Shown piece by piece: positions 22,184 through 35,533 of a stretch of DNA of 64,000 nt. The first letter of the stretch is position 1. Each line of letters opens with the position of its first letter. The notes under the pieces were generated by a model. That model was given only the letters and a program-made list of their open reading frames with translations, was not told where the DNA came from and searched no databases. The stretch covers positions 3,468-67,467 of the forward strand of contig JAGWOI010000008.1 in the NCBI GenBank assembly GCA_028870995.1, in the 5' to 3' direction. The position numbers and the translations under genes were made by a program. This DNA comes from Candidatus Omnitrophota bacterium. GTDB lineage: Bacteria > Omnitrophota > Gorgyraeia > Zapsychrales > Fredricksoniimonadaceae.

Positions 22184-23250
22184 TGGATTACCGCAAGATC
22201 CTTATCATCAATCCCTACGGCATCGGGGATGTTTTATTCACCACCCCCGTCATTAGAAATCTGCGTTTGGCGTTTCCCAAAGCTGCGATCGGTTACCTGG
22301 CCAATGCACGGACGGCCAGCTTCCTTAAAGCCGATGGCGATATAACCCGTGTTTTTGTTTATGAGCGCGACGAATTTGTCCAAGCCTATCGCCAGAATCC
22401 CTTAAAATTTGCGCGCAAGTGGTTTGAGCTTTTTCAAACCATTAAACAGGAGGCCTTCGACCTGGCCCTCGATTTTTCCATGAACAGCACCTTCGGATTT
22501 CTGACAGCAGCCTGCGGGATCAAGGAACGGGTTGGGTTCGATTATAAGAAACGCGGCCGGTTCCTGACTGACCGTCTTCCTTTTGAGGGTTACCAAGGGA
22601 AGCATGTCATCGAACACCAGTTGGATTTGCTGCGCTATTTGCAGATACCAGTGGCGACCAATCGCATGAGCCTCGCCATCCCTTACGGAGACATCCAATG
22701 GGCCCGCCAATGGGTCTTGCAGCAGGGTATCGACTCATCCAAACCTTTGATAGGGGTGGTACCGGGCGCCGGCGCCAGTTGGGGCAAAAACGCCGGGTTT
22801 AGGCGGTGGGCTGGGTCTAAATATGCAGAATTATTGGATAAAATTATTGAAAATTTCGACGCTGCCGTTATACTGATGGGAGATTCAACCGAACAAGAGT
22901 TGTGCAGGGACCTTGCCGTTCAAGTGCATTTTCCGCTTTATTCCGCCACAGGCCAAACCACTTTGACCCGTATGGCGGCGTTGATGGCGCGATGCCGCTT
23001 AGTCCTCGTCAATGACGGAGGGCCCTTGCATGTGGCGGTGGCCTCGGGCGTCAAGACTGTTTCCATTTTCGGCCCCCAAGACCACTTGATTTACGGCCCT
23101 TATCCTGCACAAGGCCATGTGGTGGTCAGGAAAGAGTTGCCGTGCCAGCCGTGTTACCGGCGGTTCCGCATGGCCCGCTGCGAACACATCAATTGTTTGA
23201 AAGAATTATCCGTCGAAGAAGTTTATAGAAAGGTTGCCGACATCCTATGA
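22183..23250 (+). CDS. Glycosyltransferase family 9 (ADP-heptose:LPS heptosyltransferase-like)
   Basis: The N-terminus is 'KILIINPYGIGDVLFTTPVIRNL'. The C-terminus 'VLVNDGGPLHVAVASGVKTVSIFGP' is typical of RfaF/RfaC. Confidence 0.8.
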   Translation: MDYRKILIINPYGIGDVLFTTPVIRNLRLAFPKAAIGYLANARTASFLKADGDITRVFVYERDEFVQAYRQNPLKFARKWFELFQTIKQEAFDLALDFSMNSTFGFLTAACGIKERVGFDYKKRGRFLTDRLPFEGYQGKHVIEHQLDLLRYLQIPVATNRMSLAIPYGDIQWARQWVLQQGIDSSKPLIGVVPGAGASWGKNAGFRRWAGSKYAELLDKIIENFDAAVILMGDSTEQELCRDLAVQVHFPLYSATGQTTLTRMAALMARCRLVLVNDGGPLHVAVASGVKTVSIFGPQDHLIYGPYPAQGHVVVRKELPCQPCYRRFRMARCEHINCLKELSVEEVYRKVADIL

Positions 23251-24347
23251 GTATTCCCTTCATTGATTTCAGAGAACAGAACCGCCTGATCGCCGCCGAG
23301 GTCGATACGGGCTTTAAGAAAGTATTTGAAAAAGGCGACTATATTCTGGGCGAACAGGCCCGTCTTTTTGAGGAGGCTTTCGCCCGTTACTGTGAAGCCA
23401 AACATGGCGTGGGCGTCAATTCGGGCACCGACGCGCTGCACCTGGCTTTGCTGGCGCTTGGCATCGACGAGAACGATGAAGTGATCCTGCCCACGCATAC
23501 CTTTATCGCCACGGCTTTGTGCGTCTCTTTCTGCCGGGCCAAGCCGGTCTTCGTGGATGTCGAACCGGACACTTATAACATCGATCCCGAAGCTTTCCGC
23601 AAGGCGATCACCAAGAAAACCAAGGCGGTTATCCCCGTACATATTTACGGCCAGCCGGCCAATATGGATGAGATCACCTCCATCGCCCGCGAGCACGGTA
23701 TCAAGGTCGTCGAGGACGCCGCTCAAGCGCACGGCTCCCGGTATAAGAACCGCAGGGTGGGATCATTGGGCGATGTGGCGTGCTTTTCTTTTTATCCCAC
23801 CAAGAGCCTTGGCGCTTGCGGGGATGCAGGCATGATCGTCACCAGCGATAAGGGGATTTATGAAAGGGCCCTGATGCTGCGCGATTATGGCCGCCAGGGC
23901 CGGTACGAGCATAAAATCAAGGGCACTAATTCCCGCCTGGATACGATCCAAGCGGTGATCCTTAACGCCAAGCTGAAACATTTGGACCAATGGAACCAGA
24001 TGCGCGCCAAGAATGCGGCTGCCTATGCGGAGCTTTTAAAGCCTTTGAAGGATGTGGTGGCGCCGGTGACCAAGCCGGACCGCACGCACGTCTTTCAGAC
24101 CTATGCCGTTCTTGTCCCTAACCGCGACAAGGTGATGGAGGCCATGAAGGCCCAAGGCATTGGCGTGCTGATCCATTATCCCATCGGTTTGCATTTGCAG
24201 GAGGCCTATGCGGAATTGGGTTATAAAAAAGGAGATTTCCCCGTGGCTGAGAAGGTGGCGGATCAGGTCATGAGCCTGCCCATGTTTCCCCATATGACCA
24301 GGGAACAGGTTGAGACGGTGGTGGCAGCTTTGAAAAAATCTTTATAA
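23247..24347 (+). CDS. DegT/DnrJ/EryC1/StrS-family sugar aminotransferase (canonical Lys)
   Basis: 'FSFYPTKSLGACGDAGMIVT' and 'VIPVHIYGQPANMDEI' are present. Confidence 0.85.
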   Translation: MSIPFIDFREQNRLIAAEVDTGFKKVFEKGDYILGEQARLFEEAFARYCEAKHGVGVNSGTDALHLALLALGIDENDEVILPTHTFIATALCVSFCRAKPVFVDVEPDTYNIDPEAFRKAITKKTKAVIPVHIYGQPANMDEITSIAREHGIKVVEDAAQAHGSRYKNRRVGSLGDVACFSFYPTKSLGACGDAGMIVTSDKGIYERALMLRDYGRQGRYEHKIKGTNSRLDTIQAVILNAKLKHLDQWNQMRAKNAAAYAELLKPLKDVVAPVTKPDRTHVFQTYAVLVPNRDKVMEAMKAQGIGVLIHYPIGLHLQEAYAELGYKKGDFPVAEKVADQVMSLPMFPHMTREQVETVVAALKKSL

Positions 24348-24348
24348 C

Positions 24349-25155
24349 ATGGCCCCTTTAAGTGTCGTCATCATCGCCAAGAATGAAGCCGGCCGCATCA
24401 AGGACTGCATCGAAAGTGTGCATGAATGGGCCGATGAGATCGTGGTGATCGACGATGAGAGCACCGACAACACCCGCGCCATTGCCTTGAAATACACTCC
24501 GGCCATTTACAGCCGCCGGATGGAGCTGGAGGGCAAGCAGCGTAATTTCGCCGCCTCACAGGCCAAGAACGACTGGATCATGCTCTTGGACTGCGATGAG
24601 CGCCCGACCCCGGAGCTTAAGGAAGAGATCGCGGCGGTGCTTAAAGAGCCGGATCCTAAGATCGCCGCCTATTGGGCGCCGCAGATCAATTATTTGGGCG
24701 ACATGCCGCTGCTGCACGGCGGATGGTCGAGCCCGCATATTCGTTTGTATAACAAGAATCGCATGTCATGGTCGGAAGCGGTTTATGATGTCATCCATCC
24801 GGGCATCAAGACCAAGGAAGGCTTCCGCGGAGGCCATTTGAAATCCGCCACCATCCATTATAGTTTCCGTAATGTCGAGGACCTGGTGGCCAAGATCAAC
24901 CGGTATTCGACCATGGAAGCCTTCAAGTGGTACATGGACAAACGGGATATGCCTTTGATCAAGGCTTTGTGGCGCGCCTGGGACCGTTTTTTCCGGAGAC
25001 TCGTTGCTAAAAAAGGTTACAAGGACGGTTATTTTGGTTTCGTGGCGGCGGTGGTCAGCAGTTTCAATGAGTTGGCGGTTTACAGCAAGTACAGGGAAAT
25101 GAAGGAAAAGGGACATTACCTGGACCGGTTTAAAGCCAAGGGCCTGATAGCATGA
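24349..25155 (+). CDS. Glycosyltransferase family 2 (WaaE/KdtX-like LPS core GT)
   Basis: 'LSVVIIAKNEAGRIKDCIESV...EIVVIDDESTDNT' and the DxD-like 'LDCDE' are present. Confidence 0.75.
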   Translation: MAPLSVVIIAKNEAGRIKDCIESVHEWADEIVVIDDESTDNTRAIALKYTPAIYSRRMELEGKQRNFAASQAKNDWIMLLDCDERPTPELKEEIAAVLKEPDPKIAAYWAPQINYLGDMPLLHGGWSSPHIRLYNKNRMSWSEAVYDVIHPGIKTKEGFRGGHLKSATIHYSFRNVEDLVAKINRYSTMEAFKWYMDKRDMPLIKALWRAWDRFFRRLVAKKGYKDGYFGFVAAVVSSFNELAVYSKYREMKEKGHYLDRFKAKGLIA

Positions 25156-25739
25156 AGGTCGTTTTTTTGGACAGAGACGGGGTCATCAACAAATTCCCGG
25201 GCAACGGCGCCTATGTGACCAAGGTCAAGGATTTTCATTTCATCCCCGGCTCCGTCGAAGCTATCCGGGATTTGACCCAAAGCGGGCATAAAATTTTTGT
25301 CATCTCCAACCAGGCCGGTGTGGGCAAGGGGGTTTACTCACGGCACAAACTCCAGCGCATCGACGCCAAAATGATCAAAGGTGTCGAAAAGGCCGGCGGC
25401 AGGATCCGCAAAAGCTTTTATTGCACCCATCGTTCCGACGCCGGCTGTGATTGCCGCAAGCCCGGCATAGGGATGCTTAAAAAAGCCTTGAAGTCCCTCA
25501 ACAAGACCATTGCCCACGCCCAGAAGGCCTTTTTCGTCGGCGACACCGAGGGAGACATCAAGACCGGGCATAATGCCGGTTGCAAGACCATTTTTGTGCT
25601 TTCAGGCCGGGAAAACCGCCGGTACATGCGCAAGTGGACCGTCAAACCCGATCATATCGTCAAGGATTTGAAGGCCGCCGCTTCGATCATTCAACATGCG
25701 AATTCTAATCATTCACGCAACAGCCGGCGCGGGGCATAA
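25152..25739 (+). CDS. gmhB: D-glycero-D-manno-heptose 1,7-bisphosphate phosphatase (HAD-IIIA)
   Basis: 'VVFLDRDGVIN' is HAD motif I. 'VISNQAGV' is present. The zinc-binding region is 'CTHRSDAGCDCRKP'. 'VGDTEGD' is present. Confidence 0.8.
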   Translation: MKVVFLDRDGVINKFPGNGAYVTKVKDFHFIPGSVEAIRDLTQSGHKIFVISNQAGVGKGVYSRHKLQRIDAKMIKGVEKAGGRIRKSFYCTHRSDAGCDCRKPGIGMLKKALKSLNKTIAHAQKAFFVGDTEGDIKTGHNAGCKTIFVLSGRENRRYMRKWTVKPDHIVKDLKAAASIIQHANSNHSRNSRRGA

Positions 25740-26784
25740 AAAAGCCGCCGAGGCGGTCTTCCGGGGGCTTGAGTCCCAAGGCGGACACCAGGTTATCTTT
25801 GCCGACGCGCTGGATTACACCAATCCTTTCTTCAAAAAGTCTTATCCGTGGGTGTATACCTTTATGGTCACACGCCTGCCCTGGGCATGGGGCTTTTTCT
25901 TCGGACTGCTCGACAGACCCTGGATGCAGCCGCTGCTTGCCCTGGCCCGCCGCCTGTACAATGGCTTTAATGCCGCCCCTTTACAGCAATGGCTCATCAA
26001 AGAACAATTTGACGTGATCATTGCCACGCATTTTTTGTCGGCGGAAGTGGGCGCCTATCTTAAAAGGGAAGGCAAGATCAAATCCAGGCTCATCTGTGTG
26101 GTGACGGACTTTGATGCCCATCGCATTTGGGTCAACAGGGGCACGGATATTTATACCGCGGCGTGTGAATACACAAAGAACAAGCTTGAGAGCCTCGGGG
26201 TTTCTCCCGATAAGATCTTCATCACCGGCATACCGACTGACCCCAAATTCAACCTGACGCAGGACAAGACCGCCTTAAAGAAGAAACTGGGGATCCAGGA
26301 GAATCTATTGACTATCTTGATCGCCACCGGCTCTTTCGGGATGGGGCCGATCGAACAATTGGCCGGACTGCTGAAAGACTATCAGCTGCTCATCGTTTGC
26401 GGGCATAACCGCAGCCTTTATGAACAATTAAAACCATTAATGCAAAAGGACGGACATGTGCTGGTCCTGGGCCTGGTCGATAACATGCATGAATTGATGT
26501 CGGTCGCTGATATGATGGTCACCAAGCCCGGCGGGCTCTCCATTGCGGAAGCCCTGGTCAAGAACCTGCCCATGATATTCTTCAGCGCCATTCCCGGCCA
26601 GGAGACCAACAATATCAAGGTCCTGGCCAGTTATCAGGCCGCCCAGGGACAGTGTTCCCTGGACCAGATTGTCAAGACCGTCCGGGAATGGCATTCCCAT
26701 CCACAACAATTAGCGGCGCTGCGCGGGCGGCTGGCGGCCCTGGCGCATCCCCGTGCCGTTGTCGATATAATCTCTCTGATATGA
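25696..26784 (+). CDS. MGDG-synthase/UgtP-like glycosyltransferase (GT28), diacylglycerol or lipid glycosyltransferase
   Basis: The N-terminus 'ILIIHATAGAGHKKAAEAV' is typical of the MGDG_synth domain. The C-terminal Glyco_tran_28_C-like region is 'VTKPGGLSIAEAL'. Confidence 0.75.
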   Translation: MRILIIHATAGAGHKKAAEAVFRGLESQGGHQVIFADALDYTNPFFKKSYPWVYTFMVTRLPWAWGFFFGLLDRPWMQPLLALARRLYNGFNAAPLQQWLIKEQFDVIIATHFLSAEVGAYLKREGKIKSRLICVVTDFDAHRIWVNRGTDIYTAACEYTKNKLESLGVSPDKIFITGIPTDPKFNLTQDKTALKKKLGIQENLLTILIATGSFGMGPIEQLAGLLKDYQLLIVCGHNRSLYEQLKPLMQKDGHVLVLGLVDNMHELMSVADMMVTKPGGLSIAEALVKNLPMIFFSAIPGQETNNIKVLASYQAAQGQCSLDQIVKTVREWHSHPQQLAALRGRLAALAHPRAVVDIISLI

Positions 26785-28499
26785 TCGCACAGGTGGCCTT
26801 CGACCTGCCCCTCGAGGGGCCTTTTGATTATCTCATTCCGGAGCCTCTGGCCTCCCGGGTGGCTGTAGGCTGCCGGGTCAGGGTTTCCTTTGGATTCCGT
26901 CCCAAAACCGGATTTGTGGTGGGGTTATTGGCACAAAGCGCCCTGCCTAAACTAAAACCGGTCCTGGCAGTGGAGGACAGCGGTAATTTTAATGATCTGG
27001 ACCTTCAGTTTGCCAGAAGTTTCAGCGCCTATTACGGCTGCAGCCTTGGAGAGACCCTGGCTGCCACTTTAAGGAATAAGCAGGAGGCCGGACCTTCCGT
27101 CCGGCGGGAAGGCTCGCCGCGCTTTGTTTTATGCCGCTGCAGCCCGGCGGATTACGCCGCCCGGATCCGGGCGGTCAGGGAAGGGTACAAAAAAGGGCGT
27201 TTTTTAATCCTGGTCCCTGATGCCTTCAGGGGCCGGATGCTTTCTTCCGCGGTCGACGGAGAGGTCAAGATGGGCACCCGTTCGCTGGTGTTCGAAACCG
27301 ACGGCCGTTATGACTGTGTCATCATGGTGGATGAAGAGGATGCCTCCTACAAGCAAGAGCAAAGCCCCATGTATGAGACCCGTCAGGTGCTCTTGCAGCG
27401 TGCCGCCATTTATGGGTTCGATGTGGCCTTTGTGGGGATTACACCGTCGGTGGAATTGATGGCTTTGGTGCGCGAAGGCAAGATCCAAGAACTTGAGGCG
27501 GCCCGCGTTGATGTTCCCACGGTCAGGTTGGTGGACTTGTCCAATTACAAATTTATTCCAGGCCTGGTCTCTCCGCCGGTGCGGGAAGCCCTGGAAAATG
27601 CCTTGAAGGCGGGGCAGAAGGGGCTTTTGATCTTAAACCGTAAAGGTTCCTACCGCCTGACCCGCTGTGTGGATTGCGCCGAGATCCTCAAATGCGAACG
27701 CTGCGACAGTCCTCTTTATTTTTCAAGGGCCGAGGGCAAATACCTCTGCCGCCATTGCCCATTCACGGCCCCCGGCGACACCGTATGTCCCAAATGCCAA
27801 AACCAAAGCTGGCGTTCGCAGGGCATCGGCGTCGAGCAGGTCCAGGCGGAATTAAAGAAAATATTCCCGACAGCGCGGATCGCCGCTTTCGAGCGCGAGA
27901 CAAAATCTTCGGCACGCCGGCAAGAGGTGGACGCCCGTGCCGATATCCTGATAGCCACCCAGGCAGCCTTACGCTTTCAGGGACAATGGCAGGCCGGGGT
28001 CGCCGCATTTATCGATTTTGACAGTCAGCTAAACCGTCTGGACATGTCTGCCGGCTTTAAGGCCTTCAGTCTGACCTTGCATATCGGCGGCATGGCCCAG
28101 ACTGTGTTCATCCAGACCCGTAACATCAATCATCATGTGCTTCAATGCCTTGCCCGGGCTGATATGGGGGGATTTTACGACGAAGAATTGAAATTAAGGC
28201 AGGAATTGGGCTTCAGCCCCTTTAAACACTGGGTCAAAATAAGCTGGCGCGGGCCATCGGAAAAATCAACCCACCAAGCGGCCTGTCATGTGTATAATGA
28301 ACTGGCAAAGGCGGCTCCCCAAGTTTGTTTGATCACCGAACCGGCCGCTGAAGCGGTGGCCCGCAAGCGGGGCCAGTTTCGTTTTCAGGTGATGGTGCAG
28401 GCCGATGAGGTGCCGCCTGCCGTGGCCTTCATCAAATCAGCCATCGCCAGGGTCAAACGGACCAGCGGGGTGATTACGACGATCAATGTCGATCCGTGA
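26781..28499 (+). CDS. priA: Primosomal protein N' (PriA) homolog lacking the Walker A P-loop
   Basis: The PriA N-terminus is 'MIAQVAFDLPLEGPFDYLIPEPL...VGCRVRVSFG'. The DEAH-box region reads 'VIMVDEEDASYKQEQSPMYETRQV'. The Cys-cluster zinc finger is 'LNRKGSYRLTRCVDCAEILKCERCDSPLYF...CRHCPFTAPGDTVCPKCQN'. No GxGKT/S motif occurs anywhere in the protein. Confidence 0.7.
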   Translation: MIAQVAFDLPLEGPFDYLIPEPLASRVAVGCRVRVSFGFRPKTGFVVGLLAQSALPKLKPVLAVEDSGNFNDLDLQFARSFSAYYGCSLGETLAATLRNKQEAGPSVRREGSPRFVLCRCSPADYAARIRAVREGYKKGRFLILVPDAFRGRMLSSAVDGEVKMGTRSLVFETDGRYDCVIMVDEEDASYKQEQSPMYETRQVLLQRAAIYGFDVAFVGITPSVELMALVREGKIQELEAARVDVPTVRLVDLSNYKFIPGLVSPPVREALENALKAGQKGLLILNRKGSYRLTRCVDCAEILKCERCDSPLYFSRAEGKYLCRHCPFTAPGDTVCPKCQNQSWRSQGIGVEQVQAELKKIFPTARIAAFERETKSSARRQEVDARADILIATQAALRFQGQWQAGVAAFIDFDSQLNRLDMSAGFKAFSLTLHIGGMAQTVFIQTRNINHHVLQCLARADMGGFYDEELKLRQELGFSPFKHWVKISWRGPSEKSTHQAACHVYNELAKAAPQVCLITEPAAEAVARKRGQFRFQVMVQADEVPPAVAFIKSAIARVKRTSGVITTINVDP

Positions 28500-29558: not shown

Positions 29559-30533
29559 ATGTCGCAACTGCGCAAAGATCCTGTTGTCAGTCGTTGGGTG
29601 ATCGTGGCCACAGAACGGGCCCGTCGGCCGGCGGCTTTTGTCGATCCCCAATCCAGTGCGACCGATCCCAAGAACTGTCCTTATTGCCATGATACCGCCT
29701 CAAAGGTGGTGCATGAATCCCATGGCGTCAGGGTCATCAACAGCAGCGGCCCCATCCTGGACGGCAGCAAGCCTTTTGAGCGCCGTGCCCACGGGCTTTA
29801 CGAAGTGGCGCATAGTCACGGCAGCCACGAGATCGTGGTGGAAACGCCCCAGCATGTGGCCAATATGGCGGACCTGCCCGTGGCACAAATTACGGCCGTT
29901 TTCCAGACCTATGCCTTGCGTATGCAAGCCCATCGGGAGAACCCTTTTGTCGAGTATGTGCTGGCCTATAAGAATTATGGCGTCGCCGCGGGCAGCCGTG
30001 CTATCGGGCACGCCCGTTCCCAAATCATGGCCGTACCGGTCCTGCCCATGCGGATCAAGGACAAGACCAGGGGCGCTGAAAAATATTTCGATTACCACGA
30101 GCGCTGCTTGTTTTGCGACATCGTGGCCCAGGAATTAAAGCGGGGCGAACGATTGGTTTCCCAAAACGAGCATTTTGTGGCCGTCACTCCCTTTGCCCCG
30201 CGTTTTCCCTTTGAGACGTGGATCCTGCCCAAGGAGCATCATTGCGATTTCGCGCAAGGGGTCGTCGGCTTCGAGGATTCCCTGGCCGCCCTGATAAAGG
30301 ACGTATTATTACGTTTCAAAATAGGATTAAATGATCCGGCCTACAACTATATGATCCAGACCGCGCCGGTCAAAAGGCCATCCGCATTCAAGGATGATTA
30401 TCATTGGCACATCGAGATCATGCCGCGGTTGACCCGGGTGGCGGGCTTTGAGCGGGGGACGGGTTTTTATATCTGCCCCATCCCACCGGAGATGACCGCC
30501 GATTTTTTAAAAGAGGTTGATATCCATGCCTGA
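29559..30533 (+). CDS. Galactose-1-phosphate uridylyltransferase (GalT, HIT-like) family paralog with Arg at the nucleophilic His position; predicted catalytically inactive
   Basis: The N-terminus is 'RKDPVVSRWVIVATERARRP', the zinc motif is 'CPYCHD', and the active-site motif reads 'IGHARSQ' where HPHxQ is expected. Confidence 0.8.
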   Translation: MSQLRKDPVVSRWVIVATERARRPAAFVDPQSSATDPKNCPYCHDTASKVVHESHGVRVINSSGPILDGSKPFERRAHGLYEVAHSHGSHEIVVETPQHVANMADLPVAQITAVFQTYALRMQAHRENPFVEYVLAYKNYGVAAGSRAIGHARSQIMAVPVLPMRIKDKTRGAEKYFDYHERCLFCDIVAQELKRGERLVSQNEHFVAVTPFAPRFPFETWILPKEHHCDFAQGVVGFEDSLAALIKDVLLRFKIGLNDPAYNYMIQTAPVKRPSAFKDDYHWHIEIMPRLTRVAGFERGTGFYICPIPPEMTADFLKEVDIHA

Positions 30534-31521
30534 GCTCAGACGTGATCCGGTGGTTGGACGCTGGGTCATCATTGACAGCGAGCACCTTAAAACACCCAAG
30601 GATTTTCCCAAGGACGATAACACGCCTATACGGCAGGCGATTTGCCCTTTTTGTCCCGGCCGCGAACATCAAACGCCGCCGGAAGTGGATGCGGTCCGCC
30701 CATCGGGCAGCGCTGCCAATTCGCCGGGCTGGCTGGTGCGCACGGTCCCCAATAAATTCCCGGTGCTGGGCAGCGAGGGTGAGTTTAAAAAGGAAGGGGC
30801 CGGTATCTATGACCAGATGAGCGGCATCGGCGCCCATGAAGTGGTGATCGAAGGTCCTGATCATGATAAGAATCTCGACCAGCTGACGGCTGAAGAGATG
30901 CGCGCCGTTATAGGCCAGTACGGCAGCCGCTTTCGCCAATTGTCCCAGGACAGCCGGTTCAAATATATCGTGATTTTCAAGAATTTTGGCGAGTCGGCCG
31001 GGGCCACCATCGAACATCCTCACAGCCAGATCATTGCCTTGCCCATGGTGCCTAAAACCGTGTTGGAAGAGCTCAAAGGCACCGAGTATTATTATCAGTA
31101 CCATGGGCGTTGTGTTTTATGCGACATCATTTCCCAGGAATATCATGATAAGGAACGTATCGTTGCCGAGAACACCAGCTTCCTGGCTTTCTGTCCCTAT
31201 GCCCCGCGGTATTGCTTTGAAACATGGATCATCCCTAAAGGCCATAGCGCGGACTTTGCCGGCGCCGATGACCAAACCCAGTTTCACCTGGCCCAGATCC
31301 TGCAGGATGTCCTTAAAAAGGTCAAAAAAGCCCTGGGCAATCCTTCCTACAATTATTATCTGCATACGGCGCCGCTGGGATATGCCAACCCGGCCTGTTA
31401 CCATTGGCACATCGAGATCATTCCCAAATTGACCCGTAGCGTCGGTTTTGAATGGGGGACAGGGTTGCATATTGTGCCCACCTTCCCGCAGGATGCGGCC
31501 CGCTATTTAAGGGAAGCTTAA
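30526..31521 (+). CDS. galT: Galactose-1-phosphate uridylyltransferase (GalT) family, canonical HPH motif
   Basis: The N-terminus is 'RRDPVVGRWVIIDSEHLKTP', the zinc motif is 'CPFCPG', the active-site motif is 'IEHPHSQ', and the second half-site has 'HWHIEIIPK'. Confidence 0.85.
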   Translation: MPELRRDPVVGRWVIIDSEHLKTPKDFPKDDNTPIRQAICPFCPGREHQTPPEVDAVRPSGSAANSPGWLVRTVPNKFPVLGSEGEFKKEGAGIYDQMSGIGAHEVVIEGPDHDKNLDQLTAEEMRAVIGQYGSRFRQLSQDSRFKYIVIFKNFGESAGATIEHPHSQIIALPMVPKTVLEELKGTEYYYQYHGRCVLCDIISQEYHDKERIVAENTSFLAFCPYAPRYCFETWIIPKGHSADFAGADDQTQFHLAQILQDVLKKVKKALGNPSYNYYLHTAPLGYANPACYHWHIEIIPKLTRSVGFEWGTGLHIVPTFPQDAARYLREA

Positions 31522-31581
31522 AATTTGACAATACGGACTTTTGAAGTAGAATAAGACTTCCTTAAGCGGCCTTACCATCAT

Positions 31582-31674: not shown

Positions 31675-31920
31675 ATGCCTAAAGACAGCCAACAACTGAC
31701 GACCCTAAGTAATATGCCTGTGGGGCAAAAGGCCTTGATTGCCGCCTTTGCCGTTGATACCGATCAAGGGGAACATATTCAAAAGATGGGTTTTGTGCCA
31801 GGGGAAATATTGGAAGTGGTCCGGGCCCAAGCCGACCGTATTGAAGTCAAGATCGGTCAGTACTTTGTTTCTTTAAATAAAACTGAGGCCGATTGCATCA
31901 AGGTAAAGCCTTTCTTATAA
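31675..31920 (+). CDS. feoA: FeoA-domain protein
   Basis: At 81 aa, 'LSNMPVGQKALIAAF...GFVPGEILEVVR...IEVKIGQYFVSL' is an SH3-like FeoA fold signature. No feoB gene is adjacent. Confidence 0.7.
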   Translation: MPKDSQQLTTLSNMPVGQKALIAAFAVDTDQGEHIQKMGFVPGEILEVVRAQADRIEVKIGQYFVSLNKTEADCIKVKPFL

Positions 31921-32633: not shown

Positions 32634-33587
32634 ATGGCCGCAACCGATCTGCCGACATTATCGTGCTGGGTCGCCAGTCAAGGCCTTATCGGCCTCCAGA
32701 ACCAGGCCGAAGGGCTTGCCCGGGCGCTGGGGTTTCCTTTCACCATAAAAGAGTTCAAAAAACCGCGCGGCTGGCGGCCTTGGCCGCTGCCCCCTGAAAA
32801 ATACGGTTTTCTGCCGCCCTGGCCCGATGTGCTCATCACCTGCGGGTGCCAGAGCGCCGGCCTTTCCGTGGCTGTGCGCCGGGCGAGTCAAGGCAAGACC
32901 TTCACGATCCATATCCAGGACCCGGCCATGGCGCCTAAGCATTTTGATGTGGTGGTGGCTCCCAGCCATGACAAGGTGCGGGGGGAAAATGTTTTTGTGA
33001 GCCAGGGATCGGTGCACCATGTGACCCTGGAGAAGCTTAAAGAGGCGGCCGATCATTTCAGGCCGTTGTTGGGCCGCCTGCCGCGGCCGCTCGTCAGCGT
33101 GCTGGTAGGCGGCTCCAATAGGCACCAGGACTTTTCCACCGTGATTGCCCGTGACTTGGCCGGCAAGCTCTTGGCGGCCGCAAAAGCCAGCGGCGGGGGG
33201 CTGGCGGTCTCGCCTTCGCGGCGGACGGGTGCCGCCAACGAGGCCCTCCTGCGCCAGGAACTACGGGCTGTGCCTTCCTATATATGGGACGGCAGCGGTG
33301 AGAATCCTTATTTTGGCCTTTTGGGCTTAGGGGACGCCATCGTGGTCACCAGCGATTCCGTTTCCATGATTTCCGAAGCCTGTTCCAGCGGCAAACCCGT
33401 CTATATATATGAATTGCCAAACGCCGGCAAAAGGCATAAAATTTTTTTGGAGAGTTTTATTCGACAGGGCCTGGTGAGACTCTTTAAGGGCAGTATTGAG
33501 CCCTGGGAGGCAACAGCGCTCAATGAAACCCAAAAGGCCGTTGATTTTATTCGCTTGCGACTCAAAGAAAGGTGGGGAAGGACATGA
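32634..33587 (+). CDS. ELM1/DUF1022-family protein (predicted GT-B-like fold, function unknown)
   Basis: The N-terminus 'LSCWVASQGLIGLQNQAEGLARALG' and the overall length and composition resemble bacterial 'mitochondrial fission ELM1' family proteins. Confidence 0.55.
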   Translation: MAATDLPTLSCWVASQGLIGLQNQAEGLARALGFPFTIKEFKKPRGWRPWPLPPEKYGFLPPWPDVLITCGCQSAGLSVAVRRASQGKTFTIHIQDPAMAPKHFDVVVAPSHDKVRGENVFVSQGSVHHVTLEKLKEAADHFRPLLGRLPRPLVSVLVGGSNRHQDFSTVIARDLAGKLLAAAKASGGGLAVSPSRRTGAANEALLRQELRAVPSYIWDGSGENPYFGLLGLGDAIVVTSDSVSMISEACSSGKPVYIYELPNAGKRHKIFLESFIRQGLVRLFKGSIEPWEATALNETQKAVDFIRLRLKERWGRT

Positions 33588-35533
33588 TAACACCGGTACT
33601 CACTCAGAAAAGATCTCTGGACATTAAAACGTTTAATAATACAGGCGGTTCTTCCGCGCTGTTTAAAGCGCTCGGTCATCCCTTGACCGCATCTAAGATG
33701 AATGGTCTTATCAGTTCCTTGTCCTCGTTGGGCAGGGTGGCGGTCTATGATCCTCTGGGACAGGCGGCAGAGTGGCAGGCCCTTTATGATATCTCTTCCG
33801 TTAAAATTGCCGCTGTTTTTGTCCAGAATGTGGCCGACCTCGACAAGCAGCTGTTGGGTAAGAATACACAGCCGGTGATGGATTTAGCAAAGGCCCAGGC
33901 CGATGCACTGGTGGTGACAGCTTTCGACGCGGCCCGCCTGGTCGCCCAAATCCAGCATTTACTGCCTCAAGGCCTTAAGATATTGTCCTTTGATGATGTC
34001 CGCCTTCCCGATGAATTTCTCACCAACACCCGTCATTACCTTGATCCTTTGAATTTCGCCACCAATTTTGTTTTCTTCAGGGAAGAGGCAGGCCACCACA
34101 CGCGGCTGGTCACGGCCAATTATTGGGCCGGATACAGCCAGAAGGAGGTGGGCCTCTGGTGCTGCCTTTTCGACAAGGACGGCAAGGCCTTGTCCCAGTG
34201 GTGGGAGAAACTTAAAAAAAGCGTTCATACCATCACGCTCGACAGCAAGGAAATCAAGGAGCGCCTGAAGCTGGGGTCATTTACCGGCAGTTTGTTTGTG
34301 CATTTTACCGGTGTCGCCGGCCATGATGTGGCCAAATATGCCTTGGATACGTACGGCGACGTTGAAACCGTGCTTTCCTGCACGCACGATGCCAATCCCT
34401 GGCCCGCGGATCTTTATGCCGGTCTGCCGGCGCCCAAGGAAGGCAGCCAGGTGTTGCTGTGGGTGCAAAACAGCCATCCCTGCCCGATTCCGGCCAACAG
34501 CATCGGCTTAAGTTTCATGGGTTCGGATGAGGTGGTTGTGTATGATAAACCGATCGGTGGTTTTGCTACCGTTGAGCTGGATACGGCAGAGTTTTTCCCG
34601 AAGGCCAGGTGGCCTCAGCAGTTTGAAGTTCATGCGGGCCGGTATTTTGTCCGCCCCCGGTACGAAGTGATCGATCAGGTCAAAGGCCGCTGTCTCATTG
34701 CGCATACCAACGTCGAGCGCACTGATTTGAAGGCCGATCCGGCCATTCCGGCCTTGGGCCGCGTCATGGGCAAAATTTACATCCTGCCCATGCCGGTATT
34801 GCCGGTCGACCGCTGGCAGACGATCGTGCTGCCGACACCGATGTCCACGGCGCAGAAGAATTTGCCGCTGGCCTTGTCGATCTATGACCGTCAGGGCAAG
34901 AAAGTGGCTTCTCATTTTTTGGGGGTATTGGATCGCGCCTCCATTAAGGATTTCAATATCAATGATTTGTTAAGCAAGCGTTCTCCAGAGGATTTTCCCG
35001 AAGGATTCGGTCATGTGGAATTGACCTATGATTTTTCGCAAGGCGGTCAGGCCGACGGCTGGCTGCATGGGCTGGTGCGCTACGAAGACACTCAAAGCGG
35101 TCATAACGCAGAAACCAGCTTCGGTTCCCATATTTTTAATACCGTACTGGTTTATAAAAATGAGCCGCAGTCTTACGCGGGCAGACCGCCGGGCTTGAGC
35201 ACCCGGCTTTTTTTGCGCCTGTGGCCGGGTGAGGAAGTCGATACCTTGTGCCATTTGATCTATCCGGCTTCAACGCCCTGGCATGCTCAGTCTATGACAG
35301 ACCTTATCCTGACCGATGCCGATGGTCGGGAGGTGCACAAGAAAACCGTGCGCATTCCCTGCAGCGGTTCCTTGTTCTGGCGCTATCATGAGATGTTCAG
35401 TCAAGAAGAGCGCCGGCGCGCGGGCAAGAATGCCTACATCATCATCCGTGACATGACCTGCCGCCTGTTCGGTTATCACGGGCTGATCAACGACGGCAAG
35501 GCCTTTTGTCTGGACCACATGTTCGGTTTTTAA
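33572..35533 (+). CDS. Large hypothetical cytoplasmic protein with three or four internal repeats
   Basis: It is 653 aa with no recognisable catalytic motif. Recurrent segments are 'CLFDKDGKALSQ', 'SIYDRQGKKVASH' and 'ILTDADGREVHKK', each preceded by aromatic-rich stretches. Confidence 0.5.
   Translation: MGKDMITPVLTQKRSLDIKTFNNTGGSSALFKALGHPLTASKMNGLISSLSSLGRVAVYDPLGQAAEWQALYDISSVKIAAVFVQNVADLDKQLLGKNTQPVMDLAKAQADALVVTAFDAARLVAQIQHLLPQGLKILSFDDVRLPDEFLTNTRHYLDPLNFATNFVFFREEAGHHTRLVTANYWAGYSQKEVGLWCCLFDKDGKALSQWWEKLKKSVHTITLDSKEIKERLKLGSFTGSLFVHFTGVAGHDVAKYALDTYGDVETVLSCTHDANPWPADLYAGLPAPKEGSQVLLWVQNSHPCPIPANSIGLSFMGSDEVVVYDKPIGGFATVELDTAEFFPKARWPQQFEVHAGRYFVRPRYEVIDQVKGRCLIAHTNVERTDLKADPAIPALGRVMGKIYILPMPVLPVDRWQTIVLPTPMSTAQKNLPLALSIYDRQGKKVASHFLGVLDRASIKDFNINDLLSKRSPEDFPEGFGHVELTYDFSQGGQADGWLHGLVRYEDTQSGHNAETSFGSHIFNTVLVYKNEPQSYAGRPPGLSTRLFLRLWPGEEVDTLCHLIYPASTPWHAQSMTDLILTDADGREVHKKTVRIPCSGSLFWRYHEMFSQEERRRAGKNAYIIIRDMTCRLFGYHGLINDGKAFCLDHMFGF

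Follow-up and report, generated by a model that had tools for sequence, protein, structure and literature searches.

An overlapping GalT-like gene pair in Omnitrophota as a candidate enzyme-pseudoenzyme heterodimer

GalT-class enzymes are textbook symmetric homodimers, and their chain goes back to a two-site HIT dimer whose halves were fused, one of them staying alive. Here, we analyzed a 64,000-nucleotide stretch of DNA from a Candidatus Omnitrophota bacterium (contig JAGWOI010000008.1; called the window below), in which two overlapping genes at positions 29559-31521 encode paralogs of this class. Copy 1, a member of what we call family A, carries an arginine at the position of the nucleophilic histidine, and copy 2, a member of family B, keeps the histidine and lacks a pair of arginines that GalT-class enzymes place in the active site of the neighbouring chain. 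We propose, at a probability of roughly 0.7, that the two proteins form an obligate heterodimeric nucleotidyl-transferase or nucleoside diphosphate (NDP)-sugar phosphorylase of the GalT/At5g18200 class with one working site.

In the class I GalTs (E. coli GalT, human GALT) and in the ADP-glucose phosphorylase At5g18200 (structures 1Z84 and 2H39), the active sites lie between subunits, and dimerisation is needed to complete the pocket. In human GALT, the glucose-1-phosphate site is formed by Lys334-Gln346 of one chain and by Gln188 and Asn173 of the other, and Arg48 (E. coli R28) comes from the chain opposite Gln188 (PMC5081055). Simulation of human GALT gave stable intersubunit contacts R48A-F99B, H47A-P100B and S45A-A101B, together with an intersubunit salt bridge D98A-R51B (PMC8513031). 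From these contacts, we conclude that each chain has its arm placed against the nucleoside loop (residues 97-101) of its neighbour. The Arg pair of the arm, like the C-terminal loop, thus belongs to the partner's site, whereas the nucleoside loop and the HxHxQ loop belong to the chain's own site.

The pair described here resembles class I GalT in its two-domain fold, in its zinc-site positions and in the composite nature of the active site; in GalT, the neighbouring chain lends this site its C-loop (K311-Q323) and the two arginines of its arm (R28/R31, human R48/R51). The difference is that both sites of the symmetric GalT homodimer are live. At5g18200 shares with both copies the fold (template modelling (TM) score 0.71-0.85), the N-terminal CxxC zinc knuckle and a second CxxC in the C-terminal half, and it shares HxHxQ with copy 2. 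It is also a homodimer, with the Arg pair and the nucleophile on every chain, whereas in Omnitrophota these two features are split between paralogs.

Duplication-born heteromers of an enzyme and a degenerate relative include ADP-glucose pyrophosphorylase, with its GlgC/GlgD or small/large subunits, and those heterodimeric ATP-binding cassette (ABC) transporters in which one nucleotide site is degenerate. Such heteromers have also been described for trypanosomatid deoxyhypusine synthase and its dead paralog (PMC3663545) and for S-adenosylmethionine decarboxylase (AdoMetDC) and its prozyme (PMC5201418). These systems resemble the present proposal in that duplicates of a homomer with interface-shared sites underwent complementary loss and became an obligate heteromer with fewer live sites. 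They differ in having unrelated folds and chemistries, and the occurrence of split, fused and unsplit states at one locus is particular to Omnitrophota. In the literature searched, whose coverage was incomplete, we found no description of GalT/HIT pseudoenzymes or heterodimers, of DUF4921 or of an Omnitrophota uridylyltransferase. This agrees with an earlier reading of the same DNA from its letters and open reading frames (the sequence-only reading), which had considered such an arrangement undescribed for the family.

If our proposal is right, the pair would illustrate cleanly, in nature, how an obligate heterodimer can arise from a homodimer whose sites are shared across the interface, with the unsplit, split and re-fused states all preserved at one locus in one phylum. 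It also bears on annotation. At least 80 Omnitrophota species genomes carry the pair, and many copies are named 'galactose-1-phosphate uridylyltransferase' or 'DUF4921 family protein', while, judging by their residues, one of the pair would be unable to act as a transferase and the other probably cannot work alone.

The gene pair and the nucleophile position

The list of open reading frames contains a same-strand pair at 29559-31521 on the + strand. The sequence-only reading had called the two adjacent genes GalT/HIT-like on the strength of shared motifs, all of which we located. The elements used below are as follows.

29559..30533, + strand: copy 1 (family A), proposed GalT/At5g18200-like pseudoenzyme subunit, 324 aa, ATG start
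30526..31521, + strand: copy 2 (family B), proposed catalytic GalT/At5g18200-like subunit, 331 aa, ATG start
29571-29603 (copy 1, RKDPVVSRWVI) and 30538-30570 (copy 2, RRDPVVGRWVI), + strand: N-terminal motif
29613..29630, + strand: N-terminal arm of copy 1, ERARRP, with R20 and R23 as equivalents of E. coli GalT R28 and R31
30577..30597, + strand: N-terminal arm of copy 2, SEHLKTP, with His and Thr at the R28 and R31 positions
29676-29687 (copy 1, CPYC) and 30643-30654 (copy 2, CPFC), + strand: zinc-knuckle cysteines, equivalents of E. coli C52 and C55
30745..30762, + strand: nucleotide-binding loop of copy 2, VPNKFP, equivalent of E. coli N77-D78-F79
30006..30023, + strand: degenerate catalytic motif of copy 1, G-H151-A-R153-S-Q155 (GHARSQ), with codon CGT at 30015-30017 for Arg153
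31012..31029, + strand: intact catalytic motif of copy 2, E-H164-P-H166-S-Q168 counted from Met1 (EHPHSQ)
30102-30119 (copy 1, RCLFCD) and 31108-31125 (copy 2, RCVLCD), + strand: second CxxC, in the C-terminal halves
30399-30425 (copy 1, YHWHIEIMP) and 31399-31425 (copy 2, YHWHIEIIP), + strand: C-half motif, aligned to the E. coli Fe-site residues H296 and H298
30441..30473, + strand: C-terminal loop of copy 1, AGFERGTGFYI, aligned with E. coli K311-Q323

The start of copy 1 was placed at ATG 29559 and not at an upstream GTG because homologues all begin with MSQLRKDP or MPQLRKDP, and the start of copy 2 was placed at ATG 30526 and not at TTG 30517. The start of copy 2 overlaps the stop of copy 1 by 8 nt (ATGCCTGA), an arrangement typical of translational coupling. 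A scan within the pair for promoters and terminators gave nothing beyond chance. The two proteins are paralogs, with 38% identity over their full length (BLASTP, E = 2e-83). Copy 1 is 100% identical to the protein P0001 of an Omnitrophica metagenome-assembled genome, and copy 2 corresponds to P0121 (331 aa), to which it is identical over the 330 translated residues of a query that lacked the start Met.

Each copy matches the GalT domains of Pfam, PF01087 (N-terminal) and PF02744 (C-terminal), above the gathering score. In a phmmer search against solved structures, the best match of both was 1Z84 (At5g18200), with E = 1.8e-56 for copy 1 and E = 5.5e-72 for copy 2; E. coli and human GalT were more distant from both (E ~1e-20). 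Against TIGR00209 (cutoff 102.1), copy 1 scored 95.4, below the cutoff, and copy 2 scored 117.7, above it, while against PRK11720 (cutoff 448) the copies scored 119 and 136 bits, both below. An AlphaFold2 (AF2) model of copy 1 had a predicted TM score (pTM) of 0.81 and compared with 2H39, 1Z84, 1GUP and 5IN3 at TM 0.70-0.78 (0.71-0.77 for 2H39/1Z84). Both copies belong by fold to the GalT branch of the HIT superfamily. By their residues, neither is a canonical self-sufficient member, as copy 1 fails on the nucleophile and copy 2 on the Arg pair. The GalT-family assignment of the sequence-only reading thus held for fold and family; uridylyl transfer is not to be taken as the default activity, as the ADP-glucose phosphorylase At5g18200 is nearer than true GalT.

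The register of the catalytic motif was the same in three independent alignments. Copy 1 'IGHARSQ' aligns ungapped both to 'MSHSHSQ' of At5g18200 (phmmer), where the residue opposite Arg153 is the AMP-carrying His186, and to 'IEHPHSQ' of copy 2; R153 lies opposite the nucleophilic His of copy 2 and falls on His166 of E. coli GalT (MAFFT). The last of these is the alignment that the sequence-only reading had suggested as a check, and it bore out its statement that the motif is HARSQ in copy 1 and HPHSQ in copy 2, with the nucleophilic His lost from the former. Realignment of another His of copy 1 to the nucleophile position was ruled out by the agreement of the three.

The loss extends beyond the window. 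A scan in which each GTDB species was represented by a single genome detected 578 relatives of copy 1, of which we kept the best 80; the titles of these 80 genomes read Omnitrophota/Omnitrophica, 'uncultured Planctomycetales' or 'uncultured bacterium'. Across the 80 genomes, copy 1 is 48-81% identical, and a 16-member alignment of copy 1 contains dozens of invariant residues. Of the 81 orthologues (window plus 80 genomes), 76 have Arg at the nucleophile position, 3 have His and 2 have Cys, and the 79 aligned members of family A divide into 74 with Arg, 3 with His and 2 with Cys; over family A lineages as a whole, Arg, His, Cys, Ser and Tyr all occur. Among the 120 closest database homologues (55-100% identity), 116 carry H-x-R-S-Q, with 4 left unscored by the motif scan, and H-x-R is present in 115/115 full-length aligned homologues from metagenome proteins. 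On this pattern of conservation, family A is under purifying selection and not in decay. The nucleophile position of family B is His at every locus examined, and the two His and the Gln of its motif are present in 77/77 members and in 116/117 metagenome homologues.

Complementary loss, pairing and fusion

We mapped the active-site residues of E. coli GalT onto 79 A and 77 B sequences; residue numbers of family B refer to the 330-aa translation from 30529, to which 1 is added for counting from Met1. In family B, the own-site residues N75, F77, N152, G158, H163, H165 and Q167 are all 100% conserved, the nucleoside loop N75-K-F77 reads Asn 100%, Lys 96% and Phe 100%, and position 160 is S/T. The Arg pair is absent from B (0/77), where the first of the two positions is mostly taken by His, Asn, Asp or Glu. 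Family A has the opposite distribution. Its His166 equivalent is Arg in 94% and its Asn77 equivalent Ser in 87%, and the equivalents of Phe79 and Ser161 are variable; in its arm, R20 is present in 79/79 and R23 in 75/79 (95%), within R-A-(K/R)-R-P. In the independent set of metagenome proteins, the Arg pair was found in 115/115 A versus 0/117 B homologues.

The column entropies of the two families differ in the same regions. They were 0.63 (A) versus 1.19 (B) bits for the N-arm, 1.75 versus 1.18 bits for the zinc knuckle and nucleotide loop, the least conserved region of A, 0.98 versus 0.67 bits for the catalytic loop, and 0.47 versus 0.71 bits for HWHIE with the C-terminal loop, the most conserved part of A. 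The mean net charge of the N-arm is +1.54 in A and -1.29 in B, compared with +3 in canonical enzymes, and that of the catalytic loop is +3.35 in A and -1.82 in B. The loop of A has gained conserved arginines (R153 in 94%, R165 in 94% and R147 within a subclade), and A keeps the N153, G159 and Q168 equivalents at 94-98%. At the level of sequence, A retains just the elements that serve a partner's site and B just those of its own site, which amounts to a complementary loss.

In the mechanism that we propose, one chain would, as elsewhere in this class, provide the own-site elements, namely the nucleophile loop with HxHxQ, held by zinc, and the loop that binds the nucleotide, and the other would provide the N-terminal arm with the Arg pair and the C-terminal loop, which would hold the phosphates and the sugar. 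After duplication in Omnitrophota, B would have kept its own-site elements and lost the Arg pair, and A would have lost the nucleophile (His to Arg) together with the nucleotide-binding residues while its arm, with the Arg pair, and its C-loop stayed intact. The complete site would then consist of the own-site elements of B and the partner-site elements of A, and the reciprocal site would be dead and doubly degenerate, so that, given the complementary loss, only an A:B dimer would have a complete site. In such a dimer, the basic arm of A would meet the acidic or neutral catalytic loop of B. The basic dead site and the acidic arm of B probably act as an electrostatic lock that favours A:B over A:A or B:B. 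Paralogy, register, conservation, the reciprocal residue pattern, the fusions and the synteny are observed; that the two proteins bind each other, that their dimer has one active site, that charge locks it and what it acts on are inferences. In the AF2 monomer of copy 1, the segments of low confidence are residues 1-30 (the arm) and 292-306 (the C-loop), with a further three-residue dip in the catalytic loop at 144-146; the C-loop falls below 50 in per-residue confidence (pLDDT) although it is conserved. Low confidence in the arm and the C-loop of A would be expected if both were ordered only on a partner.

A parallel exists in human disease. For the partial dominant negativity of human Q188R, PMC5081055 gives a model in which the site gains an Arg that repels the Arg48 contributed by the opposite chain. 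This resembles the effect that the fixed R153 of A would have unless B had lost its Arg pair, and the parallel may offer an evolutionary view of a disease-relevant interface.

Two further elements are shared by both families. The zinc-site positions (E. coli C52, C55, H115 and H164) are 100% conserved in A and B and mark a putative metal site. The His and Glu of HWHIE are at least 98% conserved in both, all four E. coli Fe-site positions are kept in family B, and the other two of these positions are Lys169 and Gln267 in copy 1 of the window. A second metal site in the C-terminal halves of both copies is likely. HWHIE stands in register with a HIT motif, but a candidate role as a second, cryptic HIT active site was set aside, as the motif aligns to the Fe-site ligands H296/H298; a structural metal site is the simpler reading because B keeps all four positions.

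The two genes also travel together. An A-then-B pair in this order occurs in all 80 related genomes, save for one locus that is cut by a contig end, and the spacing between A and B is mostly -20 to +13 nt. The pair is present again in another lineage (locus L090). In a neighbour-joining tree without support values, the major groups of the A subtree recur in the B subtree, and this mirrored branching suggests that A and B have co-diverged since an old duplication. The sequence-only reading had proposed a survey for the paralog pair with the H-to-R change in related genomes, and the pair proved to be conserved across the 80 Omnitrophota species genomes.

Natural fusions were found in three proteins of 596-599 aa (P0241, P0391 and P0392), which come from different contigs and sources and in which an A-like module precedes a B-like module; identity to P0241 is 56% for P0391 and 52% for P0392. 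In the A module, the 'MSELRKDP..RWVI.AVERAKRP' arm and the whole C-half with AGFEWGTG.YINP are retained, the CxxC knuckle and the nucleoside loop are deleted and HxH is scrambled. The B module has lost the whole N-arm and begins at CPFC, and it keeps VPNKFP and EH(P/S)HTQ. The fusion modules have thus deleted exactly the parts that are degenerate in the split pair. An AF2 model of P0241 had a pTM of 0.79 over 599 residues, which suggests a defined packing of both modules; the alignment of the N-module was only 3 sequences deep.

One chromosomal site, tyrS-X-gap-pgk-tpiA-secG, shows X in three forms: one canonical gene in locus L084, a split pair in L085 and a fusion in L083. The features of the first and the last are as follows.

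L084 5001-6041: P0493, canonical GalT-like gene, the only one at the site in this Omnitrophota genome, with HSHTQ as well as the Arg pair
L083 4001-5800: P0241 fusion, upstream of gap-pgk-tpiA-secG

In L085, A has Tyr in place of the nucleophilic His and lacks the CxxC and the nucleoside loop, and a 6-aa deletion in B takes out ERARRP. The single gene of L084 probably represents the ancestral unsplit state, and the neighbour-joining tree, which has long branches and no bootstrap, hints at an independent duplication in the lineage of L085 and the fusions. Reciprocal loss, the conserved pair, mirrored trees and the fusions all favour the suggestion of the sequence-only reading that copy 1, unable to form the nucleotidyl-His, pairs with a live copy 2. 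A different protein, P0244 (871 aa), contains tandem complete GalT-like modules after a long low-complexity N-terminus, and HxHSQ is intact in both.

Alternative readings and points that weigh against the heterodimer

Several observations sit uneasily with an obligate A:B heterodimer. Dead paralogs without an adjacent B gene occur in L082, L087 and L089. Our view that the Arg pair acts in the partner's site follows papers on human GALT and on GalT of E. coli and not coordinates of the At5g18200 subfamily. About 43% of B proteins carry Lys in place of the second Arg, and this Lys could be a partial substitute. The C-loop of B is itself still fairly conserved (0.71 bits), and the dead catalytic loop of A (0.98 bits) is more conserved than a purely inert site needs; the dead site may retain a function. 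Finally, the synteny with gap-pgk-tpi described below is a weak functional clue only.

The three solitary proteins are dead GalT-like proteins with different motifs: HCSSR in L082 (1704-2708, P0252), HSIAE in L087 (3001-3999, P0272) and HTYSY in L089 (85-1092, P0293). In L082, the 850 nt downstream of the dead paralog contain no called gene and no similarity to GalT.

How the dead site might function leads to a reading that refines the heterodimer and that we regard as possible, though tentative: the A:B heterodimer may have repurposed its dead site as an allosteric pocket for phosphate, a sugar-phosphate or another anion, presumably in the manner of the non-catalytic subunits of ADP-glucose pyrophosphorylase. 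The retained N153, G159 and Q168 equivalents of A are sugar-phosphate anchors in E. coli GalT, only the nucleoside-binding residues having been lost, the loop has gained its conserved arginines and a net charge of +3.35, and the C-loop of B, which would complete the pocket, is still conserved. However, the N-half pocket of A is largely deleted or scrambled in L085-type pairs and in the three fusions and must be dispensable there, the nucleophile position takes Arg, His, Cys, Ser or Tyr in different lineages, and salt bridges to the acidic arm of B explain the basic loop equally well. The regulatory or sugar-phosphate-binding role that the sequence-only reading had considered is possible for the dead site within the heterodimer. 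A reading in which copy 1 works alone, as a homodimer or monomer, is unlikely. Copy 1 would then be an enzyme of altered chemistry (direct-displacement phosphorolysis or hydrolysis through the Arg) or a free sugar-phosphate-binding or regulatory protein, and copy 2 would be an ordinary homodimer. Arg153 is indeed highly conserved and not random, A keeps the zinc ligands and the S-Q of the motif, and the solitary dead paralogs would fit. But the ribose and base contacts are lost (Asn77 to Ser, Phe79 variable) in what is the least conserved region of A, every B lacks the Arg pair that a B homodimer would need (0/77 and 0/117), the best-conserved parts of A are exactly those that would serve the partner's site, and the strict gene order, overlaps, co-divergence and fusions point to one complex. 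The stand-alone phosphorylase-type HIT enzyme that the sequence-only reading had considered for copy 1 is disfavoured, as the nucleotide-binding residues are lost and one lineage lacks the whole nucleotide loop.

It is slightly less probable still that B is a fully active homodimer and A a stabilising or chaperone-like paralog that contributes no catalytic residues. B has indeed lost none of the catalytic residues of its own site, its C-loop is fairly conserved, and the Lys found in part of family B could stand in for the second Arg. Nevertheless, such a reading leaves the invariant Arg pair and C-loop of A and the total loss of the pair from B unexplained, and it does not account for the loss of ERARRP from the arm of B in L085 and of the whole B N-arm in the fusions while the arm of A was kept. 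As for copy 1 being a decaying pseudogene, or its Arg a sequencing error, a single A-to-G transition does turn the His codon CAT into CGT. The intact reading frame, the identity of 48-81% across 80 genomes, the many invariant positions and the H-x-R in 115/115 aligned homologues reject this explanation, which we consider hardly credible.

Returning to the A:B heterodimer, we speculate, with low confidence, that it represents a second round of GalT origin. Of the four ancestral HIT sites in the A:B dimer, or in the fused chain of about 600 aa that some lineages have, only one would still be alive, and the Arg-rich dead pocket and the acidic arm of B might form a lock, a sensor of phosphate or sugar-phosphate that gates the release of hexose-1-phosphate into gap-pgk-tpi, or both.

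Genomic neighbourhood and minor observations

Across loci, the conserved gene order is a GT28/monogalactosyldiacylglycerol (MGDG)-synthase-like gene, priA, fmt, A, B, gap, pgk, tpiA and secG, and in most related genomes the pair lies directly upstream of gap-pgk-tpiA. The window differs in having feoA (31675-31920) after the pair in place of gap. No galK, galE or glg genes adjoin the pair in the 80 loci, and a phosphoglucomutase gene is close by in L083 and L085. The neighbourhood is compatible with a route in which hexose-1-phosphate is freed from an NDP-hexose and passed on to glycolysis.

Upstream of feoA, 4 nt past the stop of copy 2, the window contains an 11/12 match to the sigma-70 consensus (31525-31552, + strand; TTGACA, 16-nt spacer, TAGAAT); the regional total of promoter-like sites is at the level of chance.

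Two genes upstream of the pair, a PriA-like gene (26778-28499, + strand) matches in Pfam only the PriA 3'-DNA-binding and C-terminal domains. The Walker A motif GxGK[ST] is present neither in this protein nor in 52 full-length orthologues from L001-L080, and the DExH box of these PriA-like proteins is degenerate (DEED or DEEQ) or absent. The PriA of L090, from the other lineage, has DEAD, ResIII and Helicase_C. The PriA of the window's clade may be ATPase-dead, as its motifs suggest.

A long run of same-strand open reading frames (about 3100-26800, + strand) precedes priA. Pfam was applied to 23247-26784 of this run and identified a DegT-type aminotransferase, a GT2, a HAD phosphatase and the GT28/MGDG-synthase-like protein; of the genes of the upstream run, only GT28, HAD and GT2 are conserved beside the pair in other genomes. 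An open reading frame of 649 aa (33584-35533, + strand), which lies downstream of an ELM1-like gene (PF06258), has no Pfam match at E <= 0.001.

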